The notes beneath the pieces were generated by a model. That model made no database searches. It saw only the letters and a program-made list of their open reading frames with translations, and was not told the DNA's origin. A DNA stretch of 64,000 bases from Candidatus Bathyarchaeota archaeon (GTDB lineage Archaea; Thermoproteota; Bathyarchaeia; Bathyarchaeales; Bathyarchaeaceae), in the NCBI GenBank assembly GCA_963772765.1, contig CAVYYP010000013.1, positions 637,243 through 701,242 on the forward strand. Direction: 5' to 3'. Positions 28,987 through 47,417 of this stretch are shown piece by piece. The position numbers and the translations under genes were made by a program. Positions within the stretch are counted from its first letter, which is position 1, and every line of letters starts with the position of its first letter.

Positions 28987-29046
28987 CCTAACTGTGTGGC
29001 TGAATAATGCCCGAGCTTCACTCATTTGGTTCTGGACTGCCCTAGG

Positions 29047-29259: not shown

Positions 29260-29302
29260 ATGTCACTACGGCTAGATATGCCTTTTCAAACAATCTAAAG
29301 GC

Positions 29303-29542: not shown

Positions 29543-29613
29543 AGATACAATCTATCATGTAGAGTAAAATTGTTTTCCTATGACAGTTGGCAAAATACTC
29601 TCAAAACAGTCCG

Positions 29614-29720: not shown

Positions 29721-32327
29721 ATGAGAAAAACACGAACACTTCAACTCTGCCTAATTATTACAGCAACCATGATGCTACTTGTATCAAATTTTGTTCCAAG
29801 TGCACAACTAAAGGTTAATGCACAGAACGTCACTGGCACTTCGGCTGAAAGCAACCAGAGTCTGCTACAATATGAGTGGCCACAATTTGGAGGCAATGCG
29901 TCTACTTCACGGTTTTCGCAAGGTCCTGCGCCTTCAACTTCTAAAATTGTTTGGAAAGCCAACATAACAGACATTAGAAGCTTCATTGCAGCGTTTAATG
30001 GCATGGTTTTTGCGTGTTCGAACACTTCAGTTATTGCTCTTAACCCTGAAAATGGGGCAACCATTTGGGAAACTGAAGTTCCGATGAATGGAACATGGCC
30101 AATAGCATACAAAATCGACAGCACTCACATGCTTGTGGAAGGCACCTGCCTAGAAACACAGACTGGAGATATTTTATGGTCAAGTTCTTCGTTTTCTGCA
30201 GACACAGGAAACTTCAACCTTAACGTTTACAGTCCAGAAGAGAAAATGTTCTACGTCAAAAAACTCTCATATGTTGAAGCATGGGACTTTTCTGACCCCT
30301 CAACACCTCCAACACAGGTATGGAAAACGTATGTTCCCGGCGGCGGCAGGGTTGGCTCGGGAATAACTTATGGAGACGGCAAAGTGTTTCCCGGGTCTTT
30401 TGAAGACCTTCAGATGGCAATAGACGCCAAGACGGGCGACGTTCTTTGGACTACCCGCACAAAAACACCGATGATTTTCTCTGGCGCATACTCTGACGGA
30501 AAGTTTGTTCGCGGAGGCACAGACGACAACACAATGTACTGTTTCAACGCCACAAACGGTGACATCCTTTGGACTTACAACCCAGGAACAGACGGCTACT
30601 TCACTATCGGATGTGCAATCGCATATGGCATGGTCTATGAGCCAAACAAGGACGGAAAAATTTACGCCATAGACATAGACACGGGAGAGCTGGTTTGGTC
30701 ATATCAGGGACCAGGAACGATGCTATTTCCTGGAATGCCTACCGTTGCAGAAGGAAAGGTTTACGTCACGAGTGGTCAGGATGCGACTTTTGGTGCTCAT
30801 CCTACTGCTTCAGAGTTTGTGTGCTTGGATGCCTACACTGGCGATGTCATCTGGAAGCTTGCTGTTGAAGCGTTTGCGCCCAGAGAATCTATAGCCATTG
30901 CCTATGGAATGATGTTTATGATTCCAGGTGATGTAACCACAGCTGTTGATTCGTATTCTGGGAGCGAGTATACTACTAAGGGTCAGGTTTGGGCTTTCAG
31001 TGATGATTTGTCTCAGATTAATGGTTCTTGGTCAATGTTCAGAAGTGATGCAGAACGTTCCTCTATTGGCAACTTAGGTCCAGCAAACCTGACGATGGAA
31101 TGGAAATATACCACTGAGGGGGCTGTGATGTCTTCGCCTAGTGTTGTGGATGGCGTTTTGTATGCTGCTTCACAGGACAAGAACGTTTACGCAGTTAATG
31201 CGTGGAGCGGCAGTTTAATTTGGAAATTTGAGACAGAGGGCACTATCGAGTCTTCGCCAGCGGTTGTGGATGGAAAGGTTTTCATTGGAAGCGACGACGG
31301 CTACGTTTATTGTTTAGACTCTCTTAGTGGTGGTCTTGTTTGGAGACGATTTGTCCATGGCGACTTGCCGATTACTTCGGGAGCCGCTGTTATGCTTCGT
31401 TCTTCGCCTGCGGTTGTTGATAATATAGTGTATGTTGGGTCTGTTGACGGAAACCTGTACGCTCTTGACGCGGATGACGGCGACGTGTTGTGGACGTTTG
31501 ATACGACAGGAATAATTACGTCGTCTCCGGCAGTGGCGGATGGTGCCGTTTATGTTACTTCCGAAGAACCAAACGAAGGCGCCCTGTACAAGTTAGATGC
31601 ATATGATGGAAATTTGGTATGGAAGTTGCCTCTTGCGTATGAGCATCAGTTTACTGGCGGAACAGACATGCAGGGTACTCCCACGGTGGCGGATGGTATG
31701 GTGTTTGTTTCCACTAACATGCGGACATATTACGGTGTTAATACGGTTTCTGGAGATGTTGTTTGGACGTTTACGAACCCTCAGGCAACAGAATTCATTG
31801 TCTCTGCTCCGATTTATGTTGAGGGCAAGCTGTATGTTATTGACAAGTTTGACATAGCATGCCTGAATGCTTCTACAGGAAAGAAAATTTGGGGTTCATA
31901 TTCCGGAGATGAGCTTTATGTTTCGCCATCTTATGCTGACAACAGAATATACGTGGTCACCAGCCAACGTCACATCTTCATCATAGACGCTACGACGGGA
32001 GACAACTTTTTGGCATACACAACACCGTCTGCAAGCTGGTCCTCCCCAACCCCAATCAACGGAAGACTATACATAGGAAACAACGACTGGAACATTTACT
32101 GCCTAACAACAGCAGTCAGCTCCAATCCATCCGCCAGCACCGACGAGCCATCACCAAACGACGATGAACCCACACAAACCCCTGATGAGCCTTCAGCACC
32201 AACTGACGGAGAACCAGACGCTGAGCCCACAGAAGACAACTATCTTGTGCTAATTGGAGTCCTTGTAGTGATAGCTGTGGTTGTAGTTGCAGCTTATGCT
32301 TACTTTAGGCTGCGTAAACACAAATAA
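29721..32327 (+). CDS. PQQ-like beta-propeller repeat surface protein (signal peptide, C-terminal TM anchor)
   Basis: 868 aa and intact. Many repeats of the pattern G.(V/I)Y..S.DG.(V/L)YA(L/V)(D/N)...G..(L/I)W. A P/E/D-rich linker is followed by LVLIGVLVVIAVVVVAAYAYFRLRKHK. Confidence 0.85.
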   Translation: MRKTRTLQLCLIITATMMLLVSNFVPSAQLKVNAQNVTGTSAESNQSLLQYEWPQFGGNASTSRFSQGPAPSTSKIVWKANITDIRSFIAAFNGMVFACSNTSVIALNPENGATIWETEVPMNGTWPIAYKIDSTHMLVEGTCLETQTGDILWSSSSFSADTGNFNLNVYSPEEKMFYVKKLSYVEAWDFSDPSTPPTQVWKTYVPGGGRVGSGITYGDGKVFPGSFEDLQMAIDAKTGDVLWTTRTKTPMIFSGAYSDGKFVRGGTDDNTMYCFNATNGDILWTYNPGTDGYFTIGCAIAYGMVYEPNKDGKIYAIDIDTGELVWSYQGPGTMLFPGMPTVAEGKVYVTSGQDATFGAHPTASEFVCLDAYTGDVIWKLAVEAFAPRESIAIAYGMMFMIPGDVTTAVDSYSGSEYTTKGQVWAFSDDLSQINGSWSMFRSDAERSSIGNLGPANLTMEWKYTTEGAVMSSPSVVDGVLYAASQDKNVYAVNAWSGSLIWKFETEGTIESSPAVVDGKVFIGSDDGYVYCLDSLSGGLVWRRFVHGDLPITSGAAVMLRSSPAVVDNIVYVGSVDGNLYALDADDGDVLWTFDTTGIITSSPAVADGAVYVTSEEPNEGALYKLDAYDGNLVWKLPLAYEHQFTGGTDMQGTPTVADGMVFVSTNMRTYYGVNTVSGDVVWTFTNPQATEFIVSAPIYVEGKLYVIDKFDIACLNASTGKKIWGSYSGDELYVSPSYADNRIYVVTSQRHIFIIDATTGDNFLAYTTPSASWSSPTPINGRLYIGNNDWNIYCLTTAVSSNPSASTDEPSPNDDEPTQTPDEPSAPTDGEPDAEPTEDNYLVLIGVLVVIAVVVVAAYAYFRLRKHK

Positions 32328-32430: not shown

Positions 32431-33066
32431 GTGCTAGACTCGATGATGAATGCAAATAACAGTTGCAAGAATTCAAAAACGGGGCATAGTTGCGATTTAG
32501 CAAACTTTATCTCAATATTTGTTGCGCCCCCAACAGTGGCAGTAATAGCAACTATTTGCTTTTCTCTCTGGTCACCCATCGGCTTGGGTATACTTTCCGC
32601 GCCTTATAGTATTCTTCTGTGTTTTCTTTGCTTTGCCTTTTTCCCATTTCTAGGGATACTCTATTTTCACAGAAAAAAAGTTGTTGACCTGTACGTTTCA
32701 CAAAGAAAAGCCCGAACACCATTCTTCATAATAGCAATCGCCAGCTACGCCACTGCAGCCATAATCTTCTCTGCAACAAGCACAAAAATCATGTTCCTAT
32801 TAGCGCTGGGCTCGCTGTTCGTTTCAGTTATCTGTATGGGAATCAACGTGTTCTGGAAAGTCAGCATCCACTGTGCAGGCGTAACTGGACCAATATTTGC
32901 CCTAATCTTCGTATACGGTATAACCGCACTGCCCCTAGCGCCAATCGTGGGACTAGTAGGCTGGTCCAGAATCAAACTAAACAACCACACATTCGCCCAA
33001 ACACTCGGCGGAACACTACTCTCACTAACAGTCGGACTAGTAATCTACACAACACTATACTACTAA
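32431..33066 (+). CDS. PAP2-like membrane phosphatase family protein (tentative)
   Basis: Polytopic. Carries degenerate PAP2 motifs: RKARTP, VSIHCAG and SRIKLNNH. Confidence 0.45.
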   Translation: MLDSMMNANNSCKNSKTGHSCDLANFISIFVAPPTVAVIATICFSLWSPIGLGILSAPYSILLCFLCFAFFPFLGILYFHRKKVVDLYVSQRKARTPFFIIAIASYATAAIIFSATSTKIMFLLALGSLFVSVICMGINVFWKVSIHCAGVTGPIFALIFVYGITALPLAPIVGLVGWSRIKLNNHTFAQTLGGTLLSLTVGLVIYTTLYY

Positions 33067-33176
33067 CAAAATATTTCTTAGTCGCATAAGTGCATGAGGC
33101 TATAGTGAATTAGTGCAAAACAATAAAAATAATATAGAAAGGATCGTTTTTTATTAGTGTCTAGTAATTTGGGGTT

Positions 33177-33524
33177 GTGTCCATTTTGGAGATTACAAAA
33201 GTTAGTGAAACAGAAAGTAAAGAAAATCCTCACAGGGTTGATGCAAGACCTGTTTATTCTCATGAAAATGCGCAGGTGGTAATTTTGACTTTGCAGCCTG
33301 GCGAATCATTACGTAGACATATTACGTCTGTAGATGTCTTTTTCTACGTTTTAGAAGGTAGAGGACTTGTTGAGATTGGGGATGAAAAAAAGGAAGTTGA
33401 GAAAGACTCAATTGTTCACAGCCCCGCAAGGATAGTTCATTGCTGGTACAACACATCAGACAAGCTTTTACGAATCTTGGTAGCAAAAACTCCAAAGCCA
33501 AAAGAATCAACAATCTTACTCTAA
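33177..33524 (+). CDS. cupin domain protein
   Basis: The pattern LQPGESLRRHITSVDVFFYVLEGRGLVEIGDE...VHSPARIVHCWYN is cupin-like. Confidence 0.7.
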   Translation: MSILEITKVSETESKENPHRVDARPVYSHENAQVVILTLQPGESLRRHITSVDVFFYVLEGRGLVEIGDEKKEVEKDSIVHSPARIVHCWYNTSDKLLRILVAKTPKPKESTILL

Positions 33525-33685
33525 TTTGTCTTACAAACAGCTCATTATGCATTTTTGTTCCAAAATGGTGCTGGCTTTGCTTACATAAAAAATTGAAAGC
33601 TTCAAATAAGTCTACTCTTGAAGTACCTTTTTTATCAGCAAAATTCTGAAGCATAAATTTTATGAGGGTGCTCATTTTTTGAGTT

Positions 33686-34090
33686 ATGTTAAAGCTAGCC
33701 GAGTGTTTTGGAGGTTCATGGTTGCCTATTTTGTTAAAGCGTGTTTATGAGGATCCAAAAGTAAGCGATGGAAAACGGGTTCTTGTTGACCGACTTTGGC
33801 CTCGGGGTGTACGGAAAGATAAAGCAATGATTGATGAGTGGCTGAAAGACCTTTCACCCAGTAATCAGCTACGTAAATGGTTTAATCATGATCCAGATAA
33901 GTGGGATGAATTTAAGAAACGTTACTGGAAAGAGTTAGAGTCCAATAAACAACTTGTTTTAAGATTGGCCAAAGAAGCAAAGAAAAGCAAAATTACTTTT
34001 GTTTTTGGATCCAAAGAGAAGGAATTCAATAATGCTGTTGCTCTAAAAAAATATGTTGAGAACTATATCGAACCTAAAACAAAATCCTAA
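33686..34090 (+). CDS. DUF488 family protein
   Basis: KRVYEDPKVSDGKRVLVDRLWPRGVRKDKAMIDEWLKDLSPSNQLRKWFNHDPDKWDEFKKRY is the characteristic DUF488 pattern. Confidence 0.7.
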   Translation: MLKLAECFGGSWLPILLKRVYEDPKVSDGKRVLVDRLWPRGVRKDKAMIDEWLKDLSPSNQLRKWFNHDPDKWDEFKKRYWKELESNKQLVLRLAKEAKKSKITFVFGSKEKEFNNAVALKKYVENYIEPKTKS

Positions 34091-34116
34091 GCGAATCGCC
34101 ACAAAGGGTCTAAAGA

Positions 34117-34839
34117 TTAGATTTTTTTAAAGGCTTGTTTTGGAGCAAAACAAACTGGACAAACCCAGTCTTCAGGTAAATCATCAAAACTTGTTCCGGC
34201 TGTGATGCCGTGTTCAGGATCGCCTTGTTCTGGATTGTAGACATAGCCGCAAACTGTGCATTCATATTTTTGTAGTTCTTTTGAGATTTTGCTTAGTTTA
34301 GGTTTTTTCTCCTCTTTCTCGGAGACTATTTTTTCATATTTTTCATGAATCATTTTTCTGTCAAATTCCCAAAAATCATCAAGCATAGAATCCAGTTCGG
34401 GTTTTGAAAAATAGTTCATGCAGGGATAAAAGAAGTGTTTATCTTCTTTTTGGATATGTTTTGGGTACAAAGTAGAGAGCTCTTTTAGCAAAGCATTAAT
34501 TTCCATTATTGCTTTTTTGCTGCCTTGCCTGTACTTGGTGTTTGTTTCTTTTAGTTTGTTTACAGTTTTTCTTGCGTAAGCATGCTCTTCTATCAGTTCA
34601 TTCATGATGGTCTGGTGTTCCTGCTTTAGATTTTTGGTTGAAAGTTTTTTAAACAAAATGTCTTCTTCTTTGCCGTGATGGCATTTGTCAGCGTATGTTT
34701 TAAAAAAGTCGACAACAACTTCAATATAATTTGAATCGGTAACTTTTTTCTCGTTGATCTCAAGTTGTAAATTATTTATTATTTTGACCATTCTTTCAAT
34801 TAATCTGTGCTCTCTCATCAATGGTCCTATAGGTAACAA
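34117..34839 (-). CDS. hemerythrin-like domain fused to a C-terminal rubredoxin
   Basis: The N-terminal region has His/Glu pairs ([35 protein letters not shown]). The C-terminus [34 protein letters not shown] is a canonical rubredoxin. Confidence 0.75.
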
Positions 34840-35009
34840 AAACGTGCACGCTCTAATTAAACAATCAATGTTACAGGCTATTAACCTTAACGTTCAAAAA
34901 TTATGAAAACACGTTCTTTGATAAGCACTGAACAATTTCAACATATGTCTATATGCTCATATCGCCGCAAATGATTTAGCGCCACACAGCTAGTTTATTC
35001 TTTGAAGAG

Positions 35010-35258
35010 GTGGATAATATGCCCATGGCTTTTGTTCTGATAAACGCCGATATTGGATCCGAAAACAAAATTTTAGACGAATTAAAGAAAATTAATGCCG
35101 TCAAGGAAGCCCACATGGTTTATGGCGTATATGATGTTGCAGCAAAAATTCATGCAGATACAATGGAACAACTTAAAGACATTGTCACATGGAAAGTGAG
35201 ACAATTAGATAGCGTCAGATCAACTCTAACACTTATTGTAATTGAAGAAAGGAAATAA
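35010..35258 (+). CDS. stand-alone Lrp/AsnC ligand-binding (RAM) domain protein
   Basis: 82 aa: AFVLINADIGSENKILDELKKINAVKEAHMVYGVYDVAAKIHADTMEQLKDIV. Confidence 0.65.
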   Translation: MDNMPMAFVLINADIGSENKILDELKKINAVKEAHMVYGVYDVAAKIHADTMEQLKDIVTWKVRQLDSVRSTLTLIVIEERK

Positions 35259-35425
35259 TGACACGCATATACTGCAATTGGACAACAGGGGCTACAATGA
35301 TTAGAATAGTACAATCTTTGATACTGTACACGTCATTAAGCAATCATTTTCACAGTCGCATCTTCATTAAATTTGAAGACCTAAAAAATCGACGTTTTGG
35401 TCAGCTTTTCCCATAAAAATGTCAG

Positions 35426-35472
35426 TGGTGGGCCGGACCGGATTTGAACCGGCGACCTTCTGCACGTCAAGC
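35426..35472. repeat. attL (partial tRNA-Val copy)
   Basis: TGGTGGGCCGGACCGGATTTGAACCGGCGACCTTCTGCACGTCAAGC is identical to 40491-40537. Confidence 0.85.
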
Positions 35473-36313
35473 TTCAGGTTCAAAGAGACAGTCTTTAGAT
35501 ATTAACAACGAAGAACTGTTGGAATTGTTCGATGAATTTCAAGTTGTGGATTTACAGAGAGCAGAAAAAACAGCTAAAGAGAAATTTACTACATTCGCAA
35601 ATTCCTGAATGAAGTCAAATTAAACTCAGTTGAGGTTAGGACTGAGGATGTCCGACATTACCTTAGAGATTTAGACGTTTCCAAACATGTTTACAAGAAC
35701 TATTTTTTTAGGAGCATTGAAAGTATTCTTCCGTGATTTCTTGCATCGTTCAGAGTTGGTTGATTCTTTCAAGTTTCCCCGACTCAAAGTTTAAGCCTAA
35801 AATTGTTCGAACAAAAAATGAGTTGAAAATTTTCTATGATTTAGTCAAATCCCAATGTTGGTAAGGCATTGTTCTTGGCATACGCTTTAAGTGGTTCAAG
35901 CAAAGAATGAAGTTTTTGGGCTTAACCAAAGGTAAGATAATACTTCCGAAAAACGGTTAATTGTTCCTACTGGTCACAATGGAATTACAAAAAATAGCTA
36001 TGTCAGTTTTTATAACAGTGAGACAGAACGAGGTATCCAATAAGATTGAGTTAGGGGGAGATAGATTATTCCAGCATCAGCGACAGACAATATAAGAAAA
36101 TTTGGAAGGTGGCTCAAAGAAGAAACGGGTGTTCATATAACTGCTCAGAAGCTTAGAGAGTGGTTCTGTTGTGAAATGGGAAACTTAGGAGTTAGTGACC
36201 GTTACATTGATGCTTTTTCGTGGAACAAAACACGAAAATCAGTTTTGGCGAGGCATTATACAAATTACAATCCTGAAAAACTAAAGAAAATTTATGAAAA
36301 AGCAAAATCTTGA
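35473..36313 (+). pseudogene. tyrosine recombinase Int(C) fragment, heavily degraded
   Basis: Reading on from the att repeat gives ..ASGSKRQSLDINNEELLELFDEFQVVDLQRAEKTAKEKFTTFAN. Shifted frames then give FLNEVKLNSVEVRTEDVRHYLRDL... and the C-terminal ITAQKLREWFCCEMGNLGVSDRYIDAF..RKSVLARHYTNYNPEKLKKIYEKA. Many stops. Confidence 0.65.
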
Positions 36314-36395
36314 GAAGTCCTGAAATAATTTTAATGAACCACAAGTCATAATCATACGCTAACCGGTCTCTATCTTTTTATTTTCAAGGTAATAT

Positions 36396-37348
36396 TCAAA
36401 AATATTCTCCTAATAGTTCATGTCTTTTTTCTATAGAACTTTTTGCAACTGCAGCTTGTGAAATGTAATACTGAAAATCCATTAGTTTTCGATATTTTCT
36501 GTCATAATCTAAGCCTTTTCCAGATTCAATTCGCAATTTATTAATAAATTTGATGTAAAACTCAGCAAAAATCTGTAATTTTTCTATTTCTTTCTTAATA
36601 ATTAACTCTTCAAAGAAAAGATAAGCTGAAACTATTGAAGCCCTATTTCGAAAATCCTCAGCATTTTCTCCAAAATATTTGTTCATATAATTTAGTGTCA
36701 CTTTAATTCTCTCAATCTCCACTCCAAATTTTTTCAAATTCGCATATTGTTCAAAGAAGCGTTTCAAGTCTCTAAATCTTGCAGAATAAAAACTATCTTG
36801 TAGCGAACGGTAAAAAGAATTTATGCATATTTGGGCGATAAACAGTTTCTTTTGCAAATCTCCTCTCAGGTATATTCACTTTAATGAAAAATGGGTGTTC
36901 TTTTCCAACTTTAAAAACAAAATCTCTAATATCTCCTTTCATTGCATGTAAGTTTAAAATTGCATTTAGGGGAGAACCTAATTGTAACCTTTGAAAAGAG
37001 AAGTCTCAAATCATCCTCTTCAGCTTTGGTTATAATAGCAACTGTGAATTTATACTCGAAAAGGTCATTTCGCTCATTTTCTGGCAATTGGTCGATGTTT
37101 CTTCCATCTAAAAGAGTTAATTCACCACTAAAAAATTCAATTATCGAAACAATACGTTGTTGTCCATCAACACAGTCATAGGTTTCAGAATCATCTGCTT
37201 TATACAAATACAGCTTAGGTATATCCAGTCCCCTTTGCATGGAATCTATTAGTTTTTTCTTCAAAGTTGATTCCAAACTGTTGGTTCTCTTTGATAATCT
37301 GGATATTGTATTAGGTTCCTCTTGGAATACAATTTTTTTGCGGACCAT
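36396..37348 (-). pseudogene. DUF262 (ParB-like nuclease superfamily) protein with two apparent frameshifts
   Basis: The DGQQR motif is present (YDCVDGQQRIVSIIEFF). After ...EDDLRLLF the conserved continuation QRLQLGSPLNA...GKEHPFF lies in another frame, with the shift at a T4 run on the minus strand. ORF 36396-36857 supplies the helical C-terminus. Confidence 0.65.
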
Positions 37349-37383
37349 TCTTTTATTGTTCTAATCATTTCTAATTGCCAAAT

Positions 37384-38412
37384 CTAATCGCCTAGGAACA
37401 TGTCAACATAGTTCAAATTCATTTTATCAATCGGAATGTGCTTATCTAGGAAAACTTGAATGTATCTTTTTAACCAATCTTCATAAACATTTTTGGATTT
37501 ATACTCTACTAAATCTTGACAGTTAGGTAATTCTCCTAGGACTTTCACTTCTTTAAGGAAACCATTATTTTTTCTAATTTCTTCTCCACCTTTGTGGCTT
37601 TTTATTAATTCAATTTGATAAGGTCTTTCAGCTCTTAATTGAGTCTTAAAAAGTAAGGACAATAACCCCCAATCATTTTGACTAAGAGAACAACCTACAA
37701 TTCTTAGTTTATCACAATCAAGTAGCTCGAATGCTTTGCCCCATAACATATTAAAAGGATATCTTTCTCGTTGTTTTTCCACACCCGGAGGAATCCACAA
37801 CATTTCACTTCTTTCCTTTGCTTGATTTTCATCTATTTTTGTTGACGGTATGCCACTCTTCCAATTGAAAGACCCATGCAATTTAATTAATGGCAAACAA
37901 TCATAAATCAGATTATATGTTCCCGATTCGCAATTACATTTAATACCATAATTTACCCCATTTAAAACGTTCTGACAAGCTTGGTCTAATAAACTATCAT
38001 AGTTGACAGTAATTAATCCTGTAAGTTGTTCTATTTTTTTAACTTCTTCAATTTCATGTATTTGTAGTAATGTCATTGTAAGTATGGGGTCAATAGTTTT
38101 ATCGTCCAGTAATAATTTATCTTCTATTATGTCACAGAATATACTTTTGAGCTTACTTGCTGCATCTGAATATCTTTGTATGCTCATAGATTCTAATAGA
38201 CTTATGTAAATTTCAATATCTGTTATATCATCTGTTGCAATGTTGCCTAAAACATCTGCCAAATCACGGTCCTCAATTGCCTTTTCTACAACTAACTCAG
38301 ACACAGCCCGCAAAGAAAGAGATTGTTCTATGCCCGAGTAAGAGGCTTCAGCCATAGTTGAACCAGCACCAAATAGGTAAACAATTCTTTCGGGGGAGGC
38401 ATAAATAGGCAC
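37384..38412 (-). CDS. SIR2-like (SIR2_2-type) protein, candidate NADase effector
   Basis: Sirtuin-fold motifs appear in order: LFGAGST (GAGxS), TVNYDSLLD (TxNxD), LIKLHGSFNW (catalytic HG), then RIVGCSLSQNDW. 342 aa and intact. Confidence 0.7.
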   Translation of the reverse strand: MPIYASPERIVYLFGAGSTMAEASYSGIEQSLSLRAVSELVVEKAIEDRDLADVLGNIATDDITDIEIYISLLESMSIQRYSDAASKLKSIFCDIIEDKLLLDDKTIDPILTMTLLQIHEIEEVKKIEQLTGLITVNYDSLLDQACQNVLNGVNYGIKCNCESGTYNLIYDCLPLIKLHGSFNWKSGIPSTKIDENQAKERSEMLWIPPGVEKQRERYPFNMLWGKAFELLDCDKLRIVGCSLSQNDWGLLSLLFKTQLRAERPYQIELIKSHKGGEEIRKNNGFLKEVKVLGELPNCQDLVEYKSKNVYEDWLKRYIQVFLDKHIPIDKMNLNYVDMFLGD

Positions 38413-38596
38413 TTATTGAAATAAAGTATTTCTTAAAATATAAAATAGTTCTCTTGAGAATGTTTTATCGCTTTTTCCTTTGTTCTTTATGCTTTTCAAT
38501 TTGGAAGTGATAGCTATTCGTGATTCAGAAGTTTTAATTACAATATAAGAAGAAATCACATAACAGTGAAAGAATAATTAGAAAAGGGGTTATCTG

Positions 38597-39352
38597 ATGG
38601 ATTATTCAGAGTTTGTAAAAAAGCTCAAGGATATTGAAAAAATGGGATTCATCAAATCCCATCGGAAAGGTTCAACAGGAATAGGAAAAACATTAGAAGA
38701 CCTTCTTGGAATAGCTGAAAATAATATTCCAGGTCCTGACTTTTCAAAACATGAACTAAAAAGTGCAAGAAAAAATTCTAGTTCTATGCTAACTCTATTC
38801 ACTAAAGCTCCTCTTCAAAAAGGAGCTAATAATCAATTACTTGAAAAATGTGGTTATCAACAGCGTAAAGTCCCCATAGATTATCAACAATTTGACTCTT
38901 TTCTAGGAACAAAAAAAGAAGGTGAAAATAATATTCCTTTGTATGAAAAAGAATTGCATTCAACAGTTGACGCTATTAAGCCCAACGCTCAAAATTTGAT
39001 ATTAAGAATAGTGGGTAACAAATTGATTATTGGAAACGATAAGGACGTGGATGCATATTATGAAAATAACATTTTGAAAGAAACCTTTGAAAAAAAATAT
39101 AATAAACTTGTGTATGTTTTGGCTGAAAATAAGAAAGAGAAGGGTGAGGAATTTTTTTGGTTTAATGAGGCATATCATCTTGATGGTTTTAGTTTCGAAA
39201 GATTTTCAACATTAGTTGATGAAGGTTTATTGAAAGTTGACCTACGTATGGGACATTATTCGAATGGTCGACCTCATGACCATGGAACAGGTTTCAGAAT
39301 AATGCCTAGATATTTACCTAGATGTTTTGAAAAAATTGAGACCATATTATGA
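38597..39352 (+). CDS. MvaI/BcnI-like type II restriction endonuclease
   Basis: GFIKSHRKGSTGIGKTLEDLLGIAENNIPGPDFSKHELKSARKNSSSMLTLFTKAP matches my recollection of the MvaI_BcnI family N-terminus. It is convergent with a methyltransferase. Confidence 0.6.
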   Translation: MDYSEFVKKLKDIEKMGFIKSHRKGSTGIGKTLEDLLGIAENNIPGPDFSKHELKSARKNSSSMLTLFTKAPLQKGANNQLLEKCGYQQRKVPIDYQQFDSFLGTKKEGENNIPLYEKELHSTVDAIKPNAQNLILRIVGNKLIIGNDKDVDAYYENNILKETFEKKYNKLVYVLAENKKEKGEEFFWFNEAYHLDGFSFERFSTLVDEGLLKVDLRMGHYSNGRPHDHGTGFRIMPRYLPRCFEKIETIL

Positions 39353-39417
39353 TTATTTTGGCGGTCTCCAGAAATCGAGAAATATATTCCATTGTTGCTC
39401 CTAAAGAGATGAAATTA

Positions 39418-40269
39418 TTAGGCCAACCAAATATTCCAACTCGATTTACAAGATTCCTTTTTATCCCAAATGAAAGTATTTCTGAATTCAAATCCCGCTT
39501 TCTCTAACGCATCTATTACATAAGCATGTGTCACATACCTTTTATTTTTCCACCAAACATCATTTATATTAACTATACAATGTGCTTTTTCTTTCATTAG
39601 AGGCAAGATTCCTGCGTAAATTTCTTCTAAGGTTTCTGCATATTGTTGGTAATTCATTATACCTAAATCTCTAGGGTCTTTGGAATACTGCTGAACTTTC
39701 AAATATTGACCGTTCTTACGTTCATCTCCTCTGATGCTTTTATTCAATCTTTTTCGATTTAGCATATTAGCATAAGGTGGAGAAGTTATACACAACGAAA
39801 CGGTGTTCTCTTCTAGATATTCAGGAATGTTTTTTGCATCATCAACAATGCCTAATTGTTGAGTTTCAATTCCAAATCTAGTTTGGCTAAGTCTTTCTTT
39901 TGCGACCTCTATGTAACCTTCATGCAAATCAAAACCTAAAGCATTTCTTTTCAAATCTTGAGCAGCAATTAATGTAGTTCCAATTCCAACAAATGGGTCC
40001 AAAACAAGTTCTCCCTCATGGGTAAGAACTTCAATAAAATGAGCAGGAAGAGAAATAGGGTAAACAGCGGGATGAACATTCTTATCTCGAACATCTCTCC
40101 CAGTGTAATAAAATTCTTTGATTGTAACCATTCCTTTAACCCATTCTTTTGCAGTAATACAACTAATATGATTAGTTTGACAATCACAAGTTTTTTTATG
40201 GGCAATTGCTAGCTTCTTGTTTTCCACTTTTAGAGCCTTCTTAAACAGTCTTTCCAAATTAACTATCAC
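39418..40269 (-). CDS. DNA methyltransferase (SPPY-type, probably N4-cytosine)
   Basis: Motif I is LDPFVGIGTTLIAAQ and motif IV is ITSPPYANM. 283 aa. Confidence 0.8.
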   Translation of the reverse strand: MIVNLERLFKKALKVENKKLAIAHKKTCDCQTNHISCITAKEWVKGMVTIKEFYYTGRDVRDKNVHPAVYPISLPAHFIEVLTHEGELVLDPFVGIGTTLIAAQDLKRNALGFDLHEGYIEVAKERLSQTRFGIETQQLGIVDDAKNIPEYLEENTVSLCITSPPYANMLNRKRLNKSIRGDERKNGQYLKVQQYSKDPRDLGIMNYQQYAETLEEIYAGILPLMKEKAHCIVNINDVWWKNKRYVTHAYVIDALEKAGFEFRNTFIWDKKESCKSSWNIWLA

Positions 40270-40352
40270 TATTCATATACTTTTGGAAATATGAGTTCTG
40301 TGTTTATCTTCTTGGACTCCGAAAACTAAAACCTAAAGGTTCTAAGAGTTTA

Positions 40353-40490
40353 ATGATTTTTCAAATTTTTCCTCTGAAAGAAAGCTTAGTTTGGGCGCTT
40401 AAACGGGAAATAAAGGCTTTAGAACAAATGAATCATGAATCAGAGGATAAATCTGAGGTTCTTAGTGAAGCTTCTTCTAAAGAAGGTTCA
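40353..40490 (+). pseudogene. Int(N) fragment of the split integrase
   Basis: The ORF MIFQIFPLKESLVWALKREIKALEQMNHESEDKSEVLSEASSKEGS runs in frame into the att repeat (WWAGPDLNRRPSARQ). The same att translation precedes Int(C) at 35426. Confidence 0.6.
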
Positions 40491-40568
40491 TGGTGGGCCG
40501 GACCGGATTTGAACCGGCGACCTTCTGCACGTCAAGCAGATGTCCTAACCGAACTAGACGACCGGCCC
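40491..40568 (-). tRNA. tRNA-Val (anticodon GAC), with encoded CCA
   Basis: Sequence: GGGCCGGTCGTCTAGTTCGGTTAGGACATCTGCTTGACGTGCAGAAGGTCGCCGGTTCAAATCCGGTCCGGCCCACCA. A cloverleaf folds by hand. The anticodon loop is TTGACGT. Confidence 0.9.
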
Positions 40569-40712
40569 TACAGCCATTTTAGGATGCTTTTCTCGTATTT
40601 AAGTTTCAGTTTCTTTCAGGCACCCAAACATAAGCATTAATATGCCAAACTGAGGAAATGATTTTCCCATAATGCTTAATAGCGTTCCTGTCAGGTTTAA
40701 AATATCAAAAAT

Positions 40713-40789
40713 GGGCGGATAGATCAGCCTGGAAGATCGCAACGTTGGCATCGTTGAGGCCGCGGGTTCAAATCCCGCTCCGTCCACCA
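40713..40789 (+). tRNA. tRNA-Ala (anticodon GGC), with encoded CCA
   Basis: Sequence: GGGCGGATAGATCAGCCTGGAAGATCGCAACGTTGGCATCGTTGAGGCCGCGGGTTCAAATCCCGCTCCGTCCACCA. The G3:U70 pair is present. The anticodon loop is TTGGCAT. Confidence 0.9.
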
Positions 40790-40821
40790 CAACCGAACCC
40801 TGTCACAAATGACAGAATTTT

Positions 40822-41081
40822 TAACGTAATATGGAATCTAAAGAAGAAACGGCTACGCAGAAAAAACCATAACAGGATACTCCAAAAAACTACACCACCT
40901 AAACAGAAACACAAACATAGACAAACCCGAAACAGTAAAAATCTATCTAGCAAATCTTGACGTAAGCAACACATACAAAGAAGCCCTAGTAAACTCATAC
41001 CAACACTACGTTGATTATCACAACCTTTGTTGGCAAAAACCAATATACAAAAGAGCCGAAAGTTCATGCAGAAGTCTGTAA
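40822..41081 (+). pseudogene. remnant of a second integrase (N-terminal domain only, frameshifted)
   Basis: Two frames give NVIWNLKKK / RNGYAEKTITGYSKKLHHLNRNTNIDKPETVKIYLANLDVSNTYKEALVNSYQHYVDYHNLCWQKPIYKRAE. This resembles the N-terminal domains of archaeal integrases. No catalytic domain follows. Confidence 0.45.
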
Positions 41082-41149
41082 AGTTTTTCCCTTGCGCAAA
41101 TTATATATAGAATTTATGCCAATTATGATTCTACTAGGGGGTAAAAAAA

Positions 41150-43765
41150 TTGAATTTTTGTAAAAAAAATAAAATAATATCCATCATCTTTGTTATTCTA
41201 CTACTTACTTCTGCTTCACTTCTAATCACTACTGCTTCAGCACAAAGTACTGATATACCTGTAAGTGGACCTCTACCCGCTGGTGTTACACCAGACGTAA
41301 TTGAATCCACACGAGCCTTTCTCAGTTTCCGACCAAATCCTGTAGGCGTTGGCCAAGTAATATTAGTTAACTTGTGGCTAAACCCTGCAACACACGCAAG
41401 CAGATACCACCCAGACTACGAAGTCATAATCACCCACCCAGATGGAACCGAAGAATCAATATTTCTTGACTCTTACCAAGCAGACACAACTGCATGGTTT
41501 GAATACCAAGTAAACGAAGTTGGAACCTGGACACTTCAATTCGTATTCCATGGAACATACTTCCCAGGAGGAGACGTTCCCGGAGGCTTTGGAGAAGCAG
41601 CAACAGTTACGCTTGGTTCTGTGTTCCTATGAACCTAGTTCTACTGAAAAACAAGAACTAACAGTGCAAGAAGACATAGTGTATTCATGGCCAGAAGCAG
41701 AACTTCCAACAGACTACTGGACACGACCCATATCTCTTGAGAAAAGAGAATGGTGGTCAATAGCAGGAGCATACCCCGGCACAGGCTACTACGGAGGAGG
41801 CCCAATCTGGGACGAATTCTATCCTAACACAAATCCACGATGGAGCTTCGATACAACTTCCACCCATGGGTGGAAGGACCAGAAACATCACACATCGTAT
41901 GGAAACGACAAGACGGATTAGCAGGGCTAATCGGCGGATACGCATACTACTACGGCACAACCACTAACGTAGGAACTCCGTCCATAATATATGCTGGAAG
42001 ATGCTACCAAACAGTTACCACGATCGTAGACGGAGAATCGACAGATGTATTCCAATGTTATGACCTCCGTACTGGAGAAGTCTATTGGGAAATCTATCCA
42101 CTACCAACAGTCACTACGACTTCAATGTTTGGACCAATGACCTCAAGTGTAATACCCGACATCGTCGCATATGTACCACCAGGACCAGGATCAGTTCCTG
42201 GAGCAGTTGCACAAAACACGTATCTGTTGAACTGCTGGCAATAGCAGGCGGCAGACTGATGAAATTCGATCCAGCAACAGGCGCAATAACATGCAACGTT
42301 TCCATTTCACCATTGACCGGAAGCGGAGGCTACTACTACACCAACCAGTACGTAATTGACATACAGGATCTTGGAGCAAGCGCTGGTGAAGAACGCTATC
42401 GTTTGATCAACTGGACAACTGCAGGATCAAGCAGCAATTTCGCTAGCAGGGTAGTTAGCAACACCACTTATGGCAGAGCTAGCTGGACTGAAACCATATA
42501 CGATGATTCAGATGAACAGGGTTATAGTTTCCACACATATCCTCATATTGACTTCAATACTGGAATAGGCGTTACTGTAGCTGCATATGGATGGAATGGT
42601 CCAACAGCCGTTTATGAACGGTTCAAACTGCAAGCGTACGATCTATACACTGGAGAAACACTCTGGGATTTGCAGTTGATGAACCAATATACAGCAGATC
42701 ATGTTACGTTGCTGACCATGGAAAAATCGCGATACTGACACAGAATGGCTACTTCTACGCATACAACCTTGAAGACGGAAGCTTGGCTTGGAAGAGCGAA
42801 ACCATGGACTATCCTTGGGCATCAGCTGGTTTTGGAGCTTACGCTATAGAATCGGCCTATGGCATGCTTTTCAGGCAATCCTACAATGGGGTTTATGCAT
42901 TTGACTGGGACGATGGAAGTATAGTCTGGCAATACGAAGCACCCGCACTTGCAGTTTATGAGTCTCCATACGTTGATGCTGACGGTAAAGGCGTTTATCC
43001 GTTCAATGGCGGTGCAATGGTTGCTCACCGGAAAGATGTACAGTATACAATACTGAGCACACCGCAAGCTGGCCAATGACCCGCGGTTGGGGTCTTCACT
43101 GCATCGACATTTTCACTGGTGAACTCATATGGAAGATAGGAAACCCAATGACATACGGCGCTGTTGCAGACGGTTACTTGACTGCAGGTAACCCTTGGGA
43201 CGGATACATGTATGTTTTCGGCAAAGGACAAACTGAAACAACTGTGACTGCACCAGACCTAGCAGTGCCAAAAGGCACAGACATGATGATAAAAGGTACA
43301 GGTACTTAATGCATCTCCTGCCCAAAAGGGTACACCTTGTGTTTCAGCAGATTCAATGTCCCTACAGATGGAGTATTTACATCTTCAAAGACCAATAGAC
43401 GGAATATGGGGCAACGAAACAATAGAAGGCGTTCAAGTAAAATTAACTGCAATGAGTGATTCTGGCCAGTATGTCGATATCGGAACCACAACTACCAGTG
43501 GCTATTATGGAACTTTTGGTATGACATGGACTCCTGCAGAAGAGGTACTTATGAAATCGTTGCATCTTTCGAGGGTTCTGAAGCATATGGTAGTTCATCT
43601 GCATCGACATTCGTTAAAGTCGGTCCAGCATCTTCAGCGTCAGTAATAATAGAACCAGAGACAGAAACACCACTTATCAGCATAGACCTTGCAATCGTCA
43701 TCGCTGTCCTAGCAGCATGCATCATCGGCGCAGTAGCATACATAGGACTAAGACGACGAAAATAA
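41150..43765 (+). pseudogene. large beta-propeller-type surface protein, paralog 2 (at least 7 frame breaks)
   Basis: Eight overlapping or adjacent ORFs (41150-41632 through 43526-43765) are colinear with 24469-27070. It has a signal-like N-terminus and the C-terminal anchor LAIVIAVLAACIIGAVAYIGLRRRK. Confidence 0.7.
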
Positions 43766-44214
43766 GCACCAATAGAGGAACTTATCTTCCTCCCATTTTT
43801 TTGGGAACAAATATTGGATGAAGGAGCCGAAAAAACATGAATGCTGAAAAAATGCATGTTATCCCCTTATTTGATAACCTGTAATCATCAACAACTTCCG
43901 CTTTCATGGTTCAGCAAAGCCTTCACCCAAAAAACTATGGTTGGAATTGGCTGAAAAAACTCAACAACACTAAAACCACAATGCTTTAGGGTTTTTCATT
44001 TTTTCCCTCTCCATGATTTCTTTTTGTTGAGTTTCAGAAAAGCATTCTTTTCCAATTTTTATATTTTGCTAATATTCAATAAAATCAACTTAGGGTTTTC
44101 ATTAGTTACAAAAGTTTTAAACGAAATATTTCTTCTATATCCGTCCACCATTTTGATGTTTTCTGAAGATGTAGAAAAGAAGGATGTTTTGGTTCACTCT
44201 AAATAGGTTAGTGG

Positions 44215-44388
44215 CTATTTTTTTGGTTTTATTTCTTCGGTTTCTACTATTGATACTACTGGCACGTTGATTTTGTAGAATGCTTCTAGTGCTACGTTTC
44301 TGTTTTCTGCTTCTACTACAAATGCGACTCTTCCTTCGTGTCCACAGCAGTAGCATGTTATTATTTTGACGTTCGTTATTCCTGCCAT
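44215..44388 (-). CDS. hypothetical small protein
   Basis: MAGITNVKIITCYCCGHEG... An AAGGAGG sequence lies 9 nt upstream of this ATG, so the shorter start is preferred over the ORF-track start at 44415. Confidence 0.35.
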   Translation of the reverse strand: MAGITNVKIITCYCCGHEGRVAFVVEAENRNVALEAFYKINVPVVSIVETEEIKPKK

Positions 44389-44602
44389 TTTCTTGCTCCT
44401 CCTTAAGGGTTTCACGCCTGCTTTGAGCCCCTAGGCAGGTCCCTAACTCTTTTATCAGCTTGCTCAGTCAACTTGGTCAAAACAACATTGGGCACTCTTA
44501 CCATCTACCCTATTCAAAAGCTGCGACATAAAATGAGTTCAGAGAATTTGGTATAAAAAAAGGGCGTATGCAACGTAAGACGTTGTATTCAAAACCAAAA
44601 AT

Positions 44603-45745
44603 TTAGATGAACCATCCATAGAGTAGCCTGTAGAGTCTGTGTTCCAGAATTGTTAAGGATTTGTTGCGCCCGAATATTCGGAAATAGTTTTTTCCCATTG
44701 CCTCTACCATGTCGCCTATGTCGTACCTGGGGAACAGGCATGAAGAGATTATGATTTTGCCCCATTCTCCCCGTTTTAGTTCATGAAGCATCTTTGTTCC
44801 CTTGCCTGTTTCAACCTCAAAATAGTAAACGTCATAGTTTGGCGAAAGGTAGGGCAGACCATTAAGCTGCTGCATAAACGCTCCCTCAGTGGCGCTGTAC
44901 ATCTCAACGATAGGGACATCGCCAAAATATTTGCGAAGAACAGGACCATACTTGAAATGAATCTTACGCACACTGGTGCACACAATCACCTTAAGATTCC
45001 ACAGCTCTTTTGGCAGCTTTCCATGCTTATGCTTAACATATTTTGCAAATGAAAGAATCACAGGCGTGACGCCCATGGCTGCAACCACAGGCTGATTCAA
45101 GGCAGAACGGTACACGAGTTCGAATCGTTTTTCCCAGTCAGTTCTGGTTATTCCTGCTCCCAGTGCATCAATTTCTTCTTGTTTAGGCAAAAGACTGACC
45201 TGATTCAGCATGGGGTTGAGCTTGGCGTATGTTCCTGAACTGTAACCGTAAGTGATTTTGTTTCCGCTATCATCCATGATGTTTACGTTTGAGGGAAAGT
45301 TCAGATTCAGTATCTTTCCGTTCAATACGTCCATGTTGTTTGTTCGTAATGCATAATTTGTGATTGCCCTTGCTCCGCAACTAAAAATCTGTTCAATATG
45401 CGTATTGGTGACTGGAAGAATCTTGGACTGTCCTGTGGAGCCTCGGGTCATCACCCAGCAAATTGGCGGCTCAGGAAGTATAGCTGAGTAATTTCCTGCT
45501 TTTACTTCTTCAAGACGTAGCTTAAGACCTTGATAGTTTAGTGTTGGAAAATTTGAACGAAAAGCGGAGCCATCTTTGATTGTGTCTGCTGAGTGTTTTT
45601 TTCCGTAGTCTGTTTTGGCGTAGCCTGAAAGCAGTGTTTGCAACGTTTTTTGTTGTGCTTCGGCGGGGTTCTTTAGGGATTCATGCCAAGGAGTGACGAT
45701 GAATTTTAGGATGTCTACTCCGCTCATTGGTTTCCCATCAGTCAA
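44603..45745 (-). CDS. GH3-family adenylate-forming enzyme-like protein (possibly C-terminally short)
   Basis: The N-terminal pattern ...TLQTLLSGYAKTDYGKKH...FRSNFPTLNYQGL and the nucleotide motif TRGSTGQSKILPVT are GH3-like. At 380 aa it is shorter than I recall for the family. Confidence 0.5.
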   Translation of the reverse strand: MTDGKPMSGVDILKFIVTPWHESLKNPAEAQQKTLQTLLSGYAKTDYGKKHSADTIKDGSAFRSNFPTLNYQGLKLRLEEVKAGNYSAILPEPPICWVMTRGSTGQSKILPVTNTHIEQIFSCGARAITNYALRTNNMDVLNGKILNLNFPSNVNIMDDSGNKITYGYSSGTYAKLNPMLNQVSLLPKQEEIDALGAGITRTDWEKRFELVYRSALNQPVVAAMGVTPVILSFAKYVKHKHGKLPKELWNLKVIVCTSVRKIHFKYGPVLRKYFGDVPIVEMYSATEGAFMQQLNGLPYLSPNYDVYYFEVETGKGTKMLHELKRGEWGKIIISSCLFPRYDIGDMVEAMGKNYFRIFGRNKSLTILEHRLYRLLYGWFI

Positions 45746-45772
45746 CAGACGACAATATTCTGTAACAGATTG

Positions 45773-46183
45773 TTATGGTGTCGGATTCCTTTTGTTCGCC
45801 ATTATCGCGCCTATAACCACACTCAAGATAACGATAACGCCGATGATGATCAGGAATATTGGGAAGAATGAACTAAAACTGATTGCTCCTGTCACTGCAA
45901 GATAGAACGCAAAACCAATAATAATCAGGATGATTCCGCCGAATAGAGAACCAAAAACGCTGTATCCTTGTTTTTCATATTTTTCGTGCTGCCCGCCTTT
46001 TTCCTTCTTTTCTTGTTTTTCGTTCTTCTCGTTCTTTTCCTGCTTTTCTCCCTTCTCAGTTCTGTAGGGTGCTGCTGGTTGAGGCGGAGGAGGAGGCACT
46101 TCAGCTTTTAAGTTGGTGCCGCACTGTGGACAAAAAGTATCTTCTTCTTTGACTTCTGAACCACACTTATGACAATATGGCAT
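45773..46183 (-). CDS. zinc-ribbon membrane protein
   Basis: CHKCGSEV...FCPQCG, then a P-rich and KEK-rich linker, then two TM helices. Confidence 0.5.
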   Translation of the reverse strand: MPYCHKCGSEVKEEDTFCPQCGTNLKAEVPPPPPQPAAPYRTEKGEKQEKNEKNEKQEKKEKGGQHEKYEKQGYSVFGSLFGGIILIIIGFAFYLAVTGAISFSSFFPIFLIIIGVIVILSVVIGAIMANKRNPTP

Positions 46184-46308
46184 GTTTTCACCTTCACAAT
46201 TCTAATCTTCTATATTTCATGGATGAGTATTTAAAATGTAACCTCGGGTCAGCCCATAGAGAAATATTATAAGCACTTTCACACGAAAACAATACTGGGG
46301 CGAATTAT

Positions 46309-46785
46309 TTGAGCAACAAATCCCGCAAACACCATGAAGGAATTTTTGGAGCAATCTCAGCAGGATTTTTCCTATTGCTTGTGGGAATACTCTTTGTTAC
46401 TACACCAAACCTGTTTGGAGCCATAGTCGACTTCTTCCAAGACTTTTCAATAGTTCATGTGCCAAACACCGACTTGATGTTCATTGGACCAGACTATCCT
46501 CGATTGCATGTGACGGTTTATGAGGCTTCGTTACAATTCAGCATCGCCATGACTGCATTTCAGATAGTAATGTTGGCTCTTCGGTTTTTCATTCCCTCAA
46601 CATGGAGCAAAAGGTCAGAAACATTTGGAAACCTAGTTTACTGGGGAATAGCAGCATTTCTAATCCAAACATATCTTGTAGAAAGCACGCAATGGTTTGT
46701 CTTCTGGTCAGCCATACTAATCGCAATCGGAGTCTCTTTGATAGCAAGAGCAATATTCTCTGGAGTTTCGCAAATCGGGAGTTAA
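46309..46785 (+). CDS. membrane protein (unknown function)
   Basis: 158 aa with four hydrophobic segments. Confidence 0.4.
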   Translation: MSNKSRKHHEGIFGAISAGFFLLLVGILFVTTPNLFGAIVDFFQDFSIVHVPNTDLMFIGPDYPRLHVTVYEASLQFSIAMTAFQIVMLALRFFIPSTWSKRSETFGNLVYWGIAAFLIQTYLVESTQWFVFWSAILIAIGVSLIARAIFSGVSQIGS

Positions 46786-47363: not shown

Positions 47364-47417
47364 CTTTTAGCATATGCTCGCACTTTGGCTTTATATATTA
47401 TTTGCCAGCACAGAAAG

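Follow-up and report, generated by a model that had tools for sequence, protein, structure and literature searches.

A duplicated tRNA segment and a divided integrase gene

The 64,000-nucleotide (nt) stretch of DNA analyzed here (the window; positions 637,243 to 701,242 of contig CAVYYP010000013.1, GenBank assembly GCA_963772765.1) comes from a Candidatus Bathyarchaeota archaeon and contains, at a tRNA-Val(GAC) gene, a 5.1-kb segment (35426-40537) that is bounded by two copies of the 3' part of this gene and carries a piece of an integrase gene (int) at either end. The boundary is a 47-nt direct repeat, TGGTGGGCCGGACCGGATTTGAACCGGCGACCTTCTGCACGTCAAGC, whose copies at 35426-35472 and 40491-40537 are identical (47/47), with flanks that diverge on both sides; the repeat had been reported in the first-pass annotation, and both pairs of coordinates proved exact. 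With up to three mismatches permitted, the 47-mer occurs only twice in the window, and no such repeat arose in 100 dinucleotide shuffles of the window. The right copy corresponds to positions 32 to 78 of the tRNA, from the anticodon loop to the CCA end, and a tRNA-Ala(GGC) gene lies nearby at 40713-40789. The GC content of the segment is 32.6%, compared with 40 to 44% in the host, which supports a foreign origin.

The two integrase pieces, Int(N) at the right end and Int(C) at the left, read as parts of one gene. An open reading frame (ORF) at 40353-40640 runs through ..SSKEGSWWAGPDLNRRPSARQ into tRNA-Val, the left copy of the repeat goes on in that frame with ASGSKRQSLDINNEELLELFDEF.., and the C terminus ..ARHYTNYNPEKL is present at the end of the Int(C) region, so that the in-frame readings made at first pass hold on both sides. 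The integrase rebuilt by joining 40291-40537 to 35473-36313 is collinear with intact homologues. A protein search with the joined product, entered as a crude frameshift-corrected translation of 40353-40537 plus 35473-36313, identified it as a tyrosine recombinase with 402 homologues (down to E = 8.5e-96), and identity to these reached about 82% after frameshift correction. The start originally assigned to the gene, 40353, has to be moved, however: the homologous start is the ATG at 40291, where MSSVFIFLDSEN is followed by a stop and then by two frame changes before ..SEASSKEGSWWAGPDLNRRPSARQ. The N-terminal part is thus broken, with one stop and at least two frameshifts, and it is still matched at 40291-40490 by a profile of 57 Int(N) sequences (E = 5e-12).

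Int(C) shares 203 of 248 residues with its closest intact Int(C) homologue, P0001 (homologous proteins and compared loci are given P and L numbers), in a frameshift-aware alignment that contains 10 frameshifts, at about 35585, 35701, 35783, 35847, 35905, 35915, 35946, 36029, 36072, and 36130. Among the indels are +2, +3, and +4 changes, and catalytic residues are substituted as well: SGLRK has become SGSSK, with loss of the first catalytic Arg, and CGR has become SWNKTR, ARHY being retained. The family alignment has R208, K237, R296, R319, and Y329 as invariant residues, and the window copy lacks the full catalytic set. This region had been described as riddled with stops; it is indeed disrupted, mainly by the frameshifts, which account for most of the apparent stops. 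The window int is a pseudogene of its family, with both halves dead.

We consider it very probable that the 5.1-kb segment is an element inserted into tRNA-Val by an integrase that severed its own gene in doing so, and we explain the locus with equally high confidence as what is left of a small integrative element (a "cryptic integrated element") from a Bathyarchaeia archaeon. The layout is that of type I integration, with the attachment site (attP) within the int ORF, Int(N) abutting the restored tRNA gene, Int(C) following the partial copy, and the att sites in direct repeat; it differs from the type II or classical pNOB8-type layout, where attP lies outside an intact int gene, in that the att site is in the ORF and the gene is split.

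As read from the anatomy of the locus and from its relatives, the events would have been the following: (i) a circular form carried a single int gene of about 345 codons, from which full-length Int was made, with a 47- to 50-nt attP equal to the 3' part of tRNA-Val(GAC) at about codons 55 to 75, between a ribbon-helix-helix (RHH)-like N-terminal domain and the core-binding and catalytic domains; (ii) recombination of attP with tRNA-Val inserted the circle, restoring the tRNA at the right junction (attR) and splitting int, so that Int(N) came to lie beside the tRNA and Int(C) beyond the duplicated 47 nt (attL), at a distance of 5 kb; and (iii) neither fragment would be active, excision requiring an intact integrase in trans (PMC8371274), and since neither can make active enzyme, the two halves were free to decay. 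Both have decayed, and a restriction-modification pair and a SIR2 gene between them have stayed intact (Table 1). Self-excision would accordingly be lost, the perfect att cores could in principle still be used by a related intact integrase in trans, and the island would now be a fixed defense islet at a tRNA-Val hot spot.

Table 1. Features of the integrated element and its surroundings (window coordinates)
Feature	Position	Strand	Basis
Low-GC (35%) block: cupin, DUF488, hemerythrin-rubredoxin, and AsnC-domain genes	33071..35397	.	GC profile
Sequence left of attL (CTTTTCCCATAAAAATGTCAG)	35398..35425	.	Resembles trailers of unoccupied tRNA-Val genes
attL, 47-nt copy of tRNA-Val(GAC) positions 32-78	35426..35472	+	47/47 vs 40491-40537
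Int(C) pseudogene: SAM-like core-binding and catalytic domains, pT26-2/SSV-type tyrosine integrase	35473..36313	+	Frameshift-aware alignment to P0001
DUF262/GmrSD_N-family gene, disrupted (three frames = two frameshifts)	36396..37348	-	PF03235 40.3 bits vs cut-off 33.2
Putative SIR2_2-family protein, 342 aa, intact	37384..38412	-	PADLOC SIR2 models E = 1.2e-6
MvaI/BcnI-family type II restriction endonuclease, 251 aa, intact	38597..39352	+	PF15515 169.8 bits, E = 1.2e-49; PADLOC REase_II
N4/N6 DNA methyltransferase, 283 aa, SPPY motif, intact	39418..40269	-	PF01555 97.5 bits; PADLOC MTase_II PDLC03363 E = 1.3e-99
Int(N) pseudogene: RHH/CcdA-like N-terminal domain and linker, continues into attR	40291..40490	+	57-sequence Int(N) profile
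attR, 47-nt core within intact tRNA-Val gene	40491..40537	+	ARAGORN; repeat comparison; shuffles
tRNA-Val(GAC), integration target, intact, CCA encoded	40491..40568	-	ARAGORN; Rfam 64.3 bits

Between the integrase halves lie five ORFs that represent four genes. The endonuclease and methyltransferase genes are convergent and 65 nt apart, and would constitute a type II restriction-modification pair; an exact look-up of the two proteins returned no record. The SIR2 protein itself has no Pfam match at E <= 0.01, and most of those of its 411 homologues that were listed, at 34 to 57% identity, carry PF13289, the few that are named being labeled "SIR2 family protein". The broken DUF262 gene has PADLOC matches to the NsnA and REase_II models; no C-terminal nuclease domain was detected in it, and it does not form the intact ORF expected of GmrSD. 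Pfam, PADLOC, and the SIR2 homologues together bear out the first-pass statement that the entire cargo is of the defense type. No replication, capsid, or conjugation gene was found among the ORFs of the element, which, with an integrase and att sites and without viral capsid, packaging, or conjugation genes, corresponds to a cryptic integrated element in the sense of Krupovic 2019. Defense-type genes also neighbor int in related loci (Mrr_cat in L044, TIR_2 in L045, NERD in L004 and L049). We infer that the restriction-modification pair, and possibly the SIR2 gene, has been kept by selection or by post-segregational killing.

The integrase family and its tRNA-Val hot spot

The combination of PF00589 and PF16795 is present in all of the 120 homologues listed (of 402), most of which have PF13495 too. 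Intact members score 33.9 to 41.8 bits against PF16795, above the gathering cut-off of 27; for comparison, the same model gives 207 bits on SSV1 Int and 187 bits on pT26-2 Int. The homologues fall into two length classes. Those of about 254 to 283 amino acids (aa) begin just past the att position and can, because of this start, be taken as the Int(C) ORFs of integrated copies. Those of about 345 to 360 aa share a conserved domain at the N terminus (MSNKHNLVLYVDQELVEKSRELGFNLSKTFENHLK.., matching CcdA/RHH weakly), which is followed in frame by WWAGPDLNRRPSARQAPG, the translated tRNA-derived sequence, and the tRNA-derived peptide WWAGPDLNRRPSARQ accordingly lies inside the ORF of intact homologues of about 350 aa. 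Since these homologues carry the att peptide in frame, an attP inside int appears to be a property of the whole integrase family. The att frame of P0002 and P0008 differs from that of the remaining homologues. P0008 was considered as a true short full-length integrase and rejected: as called, it starts within a scar in L003 and reads att in an alternative frame (MVGRTGFEPATFCTSSF), so that its N terminus derives from what is left of a truncated att and from flanking sequence, and the ORF call is chimeric. The scar itself (L003 9990-10100, upstream of attL) consists of a 14-nt truncated att remnant and about 30 nt resembling an Int(N) tail, and is the trace of an earlier element that has been almost wholly deleted.

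A metagenomic contig, L044 (ENA ERZ27247977 k141_1108553; 12,370 nt), has the properties of an undivided form. Its first and last 141 nt are identical, as is typical of circles assembled at k = 141, and we therefore take it to be circular (12.2 kb). It carries an intact int (P0021, 345 aa) with att inside, no tRNA gene is present on it, and six Bathyarchaeia genomes have a tRNA-Val whose 3' part equals this att over 48 to 50 nt. The contig thus looks like the free form predicted by the split-integrase model and is a candidate free plasmid of Bathyarchaeia. With the intact homologues, it supports the first-pass proposal that excision would rebuild a single int gene with attP inside it. L044 further encodes an Mrr-like endonuclease, a 1330-aa KaiC-like ATPase, AGOG, DUF2400, and an M48 peptidase.

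Among solved structures, the family profile matched archaeal XerA best (4a8e, E = 1.3e-19) and the catalytic domain of SSV1 integrase (3vcf, 4dks) marginally (E = 0.008). A tblastn search of phage and plasmid records returned no SSV or Thermococcus plasmid at E <= 1e-3, SSV1 and pT26-2 both being in the collections, and the best plasmid matches were integrases of Sulfolobus conjugative plasmids. Profile alignment with hhalign settled the placement, with a 95.2% probability for pT26-2 Int (E = 2.5e-8) over 286 columns, including the RHH-like N-terminal domain and the att-encoded linker, so that the N-terminal domain of Int(N) is homologous to that of pT26-2 Int; for SSV1 Int the probability was 40% (E = 3e-4), with GLRR/GVRL, LRQW/FRKF, CGR/QGR, and RHY/QHY aligned. 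An independent origin from XerA, weighed on account of the best structural match, was dropped after the full-length alignment to pT26-2 Int including its N-terminal domain, and the NCBIfam XerA equivalog model (NF040815) scores 27.7 bits against a cut-off of 220. "Suicidal" integrases have been defined by PF16795 together with an att site within the gene (PMC8371274, PMC7253208), and on the strength of this definition and of the pT26-2 alignment we place the family as a distant branch of the pT26-2/SSV "suicidal" integrases, nearer in sequence to pT26-2 than to SSV1. The arrangement had initially been termed SSV-type, which describes the att-in-int layout correctly and needs refinement as to sequence. 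As a test of viral origin, relatives were sought in IMG/VR twice, with a single protein as query and with an alignment of 34 sequences, and none was found.

When species-representative genomes were scanned with a 43-nt att pattern, 33 stretches were found in 28 genomes, 27 of which are labeled Bathyarchaeia or Bathyarchaeota (Ca. Bathyarchaeum tardum among them), the remaining one being a single-cell genome labeled Thermoproteota only. A genuine tRNA-Val gene is present at 29 loci; in about 15 of these it is directly adjoined by Int(N), complete or reduced to its tail, and others look unoccupied. In L004 (JGI 3300032070, a 458-kb contig), tRNA-Val is entered as in the window by an Int(N) ORF, which in this case is intact. 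The search for empty sites that had been proposed at first pass succeeded above the species level: tRNA-Val lacks the 5.1-kb element in L014, L009, L029, and L024. The tRNA-Val genes that are unoccupied neighbor genes for a 79-aa coiled-coil and a 70-aa Zn-ribbon protein, the window equivalents of which are at 29047-29542. In L014 and L018 the stop codon of mem211 (window 32431-33066) is 11 nt from tRNA-Val or a degenerate att, and in L009 the PQQ gene (window 29721-32327) precedes tRNA-Val; none of these three carries the 5.1-kb element, and related genomes therefore provide sites that are empty of it. In silico, the empty site of the window would read ..CCCATAAAAATGTCAG followed by the whole tRNA-Val. 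The 35398-35425 segment to the left of attL is similar over its short length to the trailers at unoccupied tRNA-Val genes in L024, L029, L039, and L042 (TTTTCCATAAGAA.. / AAAAGTCAG), and is tentatively identified as the probable displaced 3' trailer of tRNA-Val. A 642-nt contig from a strain 94% identical (L008) contains AsnC, trailer, att, and then one base, "A", that matches the continuation of the tRNA, and is the best hint of an empty site in the same species.

Gene order around tRNA-Val and tRNA-Ala (27998-29578 vs 44600-51275) differs from that in L014, L026, and L029, where the coiled-coil/Zn-ribbon block is followed by homologues of the window from 44600 onward; this implies a probable inversion or other rearrangement, one breakpoint of which would lie close to the tRNA locus.

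Some tRNA-Val loci are more complex. L004 contains an array (9281-19634) in which a full-length int with att inside (9281-10339) is followed by an Int(C) fragment (11398-11688) and by an Int(N) that runs into tRNA-Val (19384-19620), the tRNA-adjacent Int(N) being 72% identical to the N-terminal part of the full-length int; it appears to be an array built by accretion, in which the hybrid int seems to be intact. L003, L018, L021/L037, and L026/L022 also contain int remnants or degenerate copies of att, and full-length int genes lie on contigs of 2 Mb and 220 kb (L017, L049) as well as in L028, no partner att being found within 10 kb of the copy in L049. Tandem insertions that rebuild a suicidal integrase were modeled by Badel 2020, who never observed them in their own data (PMC7253208); the Bathyarchaeia arrays, of which that in L004 is documented in detail, may be the first examples. 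It is tempting to go further and propose a large, hitherto undescribed pT26-2-like "suicidal" lineage in Bathyarchaeia that forms arrays at the tRNA-Val(GAC) hot spot, where, at internal junctions, the Int(N) already in place and the Int(C) of a newcomer rebuild an intact hybrid int on the chromosome, an idea to which we attach low confidence. If it is true, chromosomal hybrid integrases could mobilize dead elements in trans and drive the exchanges of Int(C) and att flanks between the window and a second copy of its element (L048) that are described below.

Boundaries, mobility, and decay of the element

Several observations weigh against our interpretation of the locus: (i) the decayed int copy of the window stays below the Pfam cut-offs of 27 bits, with 24.7 bits for Phage_int_SAM_4 and 20.9 bits for Phage_integr_3 (PF16795); (ii) the insertion relative to the nearest genomes measures 7.4 kb, not 5.1 kb, which leaves an extra 2.3 kb of low-GC sequence to the left of attL unaccounted for; (iii) the same species yielded no empty site, and no intact sibling of this element, circular or otherwise, was found, scans of Joint Genome Institute (JGI) metagenomes with the SIR2 protein and with the exact left flank plus att pattern likewise returning neither a sibling nor an empty site; and (iv) the selective role given to the cargo is inferential.

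The second of these points raises the possibility that the 5.1-kb element is the youngest layer of a composite island of 7.4 kb (33071-40490) or more, formed by successive integrations whose older ends have been lost. Low GC begins at about 33000, some 2.4 kb to the left of attL, rather than at attL; the block from cupin to AsnC is missing at the matching position in L014, L018, and L009; mem211 ends 11 nt from tRNA-Val or a degenerate att in two of these; and arrays of multiple att sites and int fragments exist in L004, L018, L021/L037, L026/L022, and L003. On the other hand, an ungapped 47-mer scan detected no third att copy near 29590 or 33071, the best match (19/47, near 29604) being at the window background, and no Int(N) or Int(C) remnant emerged beyond the two known pieces: the 57-sequence Int(N) profile, run in six frames, matched only these and the antisense of tRNA-Ala, and tblastn of the window with intact integrases added no further fragments. 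Nor are the genes of the block of a kind that typically marks mobile elements. An ORF at 35258-35416 was considered as an RHH strand and discarded, its likeness being superficial and its score nil. We take the composite island seriously without favoring it, and it is compatible with the insertion of the 5.1-kb element by a self-splitting integrase rather than a replacement for it. The 33071-35397 block, which lies outside the element, may represent an island that entered this hot spot earlier.

A further question is whether the element is truly immobilized, as the first-pass annotation thought probable. For self-excision this stands, but intact integrases of related elements might move or rearrange it in trans. 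attL and attR are still identical at 47 of 47 positions despite the heavy decay alongside. The SIR2 homologue search led to the same element in another sample (L048; ENA ERZ25039500 contig_28786), which covers window positions 35472-44378, begins exactly at the attL/Int(C) boundary, and has cargo 99.8% identical to that of the window. In it, about 450 nt at the 5' end of Int(C) are a different, P0002-like allele that diverges by about 20% and retains the Arg, and the 16 nt to the left of attR are those that flank attL on the left in the window, a mosaic of allele and flank swaps that therefore requires recombination with other att or int copies. Intact family members are found on chromosomes and on a circle, and excision in trans is documented for SSV2 and pTN3 (PMC8371274). 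The mosaic could stem from ordinary homologous recombination between strains, however, and neither an excised circle nor an empty-site read of this element was observed; we regard mobility in trans as an unlikely alternative to the fixed remnant that we prefer. The assemblies L007, L008, and L048, which are independent and come from this strain or a close relative, all break at or next to attL (about 35371-35473), a hint that the population is heterogeneous at the attL junction, although contig ends provide weak evidence for mobility. Taken together, the perfect attL, the mosaic in L048, and these breaks suggest that the junctions are still recombinationally active in the population.

Sequencing or assembly errors, with int halves that are intact save for the split, are a highly improbable source of the frameshifts, even though several of those in Int(C) fall in short homopolymers and frame changes likewise abound in two other large paralogous genes of the window. 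Not one frameshift occurs in the adjacent 2.9 kb (SIR2, endonuclease, and methyltransferase), where homopolymer density is similar, long host ORFs of 698 to 1006 aa are unbroken, and the +2, +3, and +4 indels and substituted catalytic residues do not fit such errors. Six of the Int(C) frameshifts recur in L048, an independent assembly from another sample, and are real because they are common to both; the error hypothesis was rejected on the intact host ORFs, the homopolymer comparison, and this recurrence.

Classical integration of the pNOB8/lambda type, with attP outside int and an ORF that enters the tRNA by coincidence, can be dismissed as next to untenable: XerA is the closest solved structure and Sulfolobus conjugative-plasmid integrases are the best plasmid matches, but the score on the XerA model is far below its cut-off, Int(N) and Int(C) sit at opposite ends as partition predicts, and the in-frame att peptide of intact homologues and the circular L044 with att inside int refute it.

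Other features of the window and of its counterparts include the two collinear paralogous large genes just mentioned (24469-27070 and 41150-43630), each with many frame changes and appearing as a string of overlapping ORFs; the right paralogue is 8.8% divergent from L048, the adjacent tRNAs being identical. Three copies of a 37-nt CRISPR-type repeat (Rfam CRISPR-DR7) at 27463-27748 have unusually long spacings of 114 and 135 nt, and in L007, the other assembled genome of the species, a shorter stretch of 2.6 kb takes the place of window 21635-27756.

Significance and relation to known systems

The split-integrase mechanism has been known for decades, and Bathyarchaeia rank among the most abundant archaea of sediments. 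In the searchable literature we found no account of split integrases from this group, and a survey of Bathyarchaeia viruses mentions ordinary integrases only (PMC10541130). "Suicidal" integrases have mainly been reported in hyperthermophiles (Sulfolobales, Thermococcales, and Archaeoglobales), the exceptions being five examples in Methanosarcinales and one in Thaumarchaeota (PMC8371274, PMC7253208, PMC6563490). What we describe is therefore a known mechanism in a new host group, and the window copy is a dead element of known type. The interest lies less in the 5.1-kb remnant than in the family-wide picture of hot spot, arrays, mosaic remnants, and defense cargo: (i) the locus and its more than 400 relatives indicate that the self-splitting mechanism is common in Bathyarchaeia, where it carries defense genes (restriction-modification, SIR2, TIR, Mrr) to a single tRNA hot spot; (ii) an Int(N) abutting tRNA-Val can serve as a marker to delimit mobile islands in metagenome-assembled Bathyarchaeia genomes; (iii) the family offers natural material on how split integrases persist; and (iv) it includes candidate mesophilic integrases for genetic tools.

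Of the systems compared, archaeal XerA (PDB 4a8e, 5hxy) is the best solved-structure match and shares the two-domain tyrosine recombinase core; it has HxxR and GH where the present family has LRxW and GR, and it possesses neither an N-terminal RHH domain nor an internal att. The SSV1 integrase (Fuselloviridae) is the founding type I integrase. Like the Bathyarchaeia family, it has attP in int at a similar relative position (annotated at nt 191 to 234 in SSV1, at about codons 53 to 75 here), targets the downstream half of a tRNA gene, matches PF16795, and has the motifs GxR..E, xxR.F/W, GR, and HY. Homology to it is nevertheless marginal, both in the hhalign comparison (40%) and against the solved catalytic domain (E = 0.008), the D-335 N-terminal domain (PF07935) of SSV1 Int is absent from the Bathyarchaeia family, and the present element has no viral genes and no IMG/VR relatives.

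The cryptic integrated elements of Thaumarchaeota, such as NitEve-E3 with its split SSV1-like integrase (Krupovic 2019, PMC6563490), are likewise small, reside in a mesophilic archaeon, consist of an integrase and att sites without viral or conjugative hallmark genes, and have restriction-modification genes in their cargo. They belong to another host phylum and another integrase lineage, and the element in the window is smaller (5.1 kb), its integrase is dead, and it has no replication gene, whereas NitEve-E3 encodes an MCM replication helicase (PMC6563490).

Compared with the pT26-2/TKV elements of Thermococcales (Soler 2010, PMC2926602; Badel 2020, PMC7253208), the present family differs in several respects: its hosts are Bathyarchaeia of sediments and soils rather than hyperthermophiles; its target is a 47- to 50-nt core of tRNA-Val(GAC) and not a whole tRNA gene; similarity at the BLAST level is absent; the element has defense cargo only, without pT26-2 core genes or a replication gene; and arrays at a single tRNA are common, whereas no tandem insertion was seen by Badel 2020. 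The two nevertheless share the order of domains, with an RHH-like N terminus, an att-encoded segment, a core-binding domain, and PF16795 with LRxW, GR, and HY; in both, the intact tRNA has Int(N) as its neighbor, with Int(C) at the opposite end of the element, and the att site is read in different frames by different members, here by P0002 and P0008 as against the rest.

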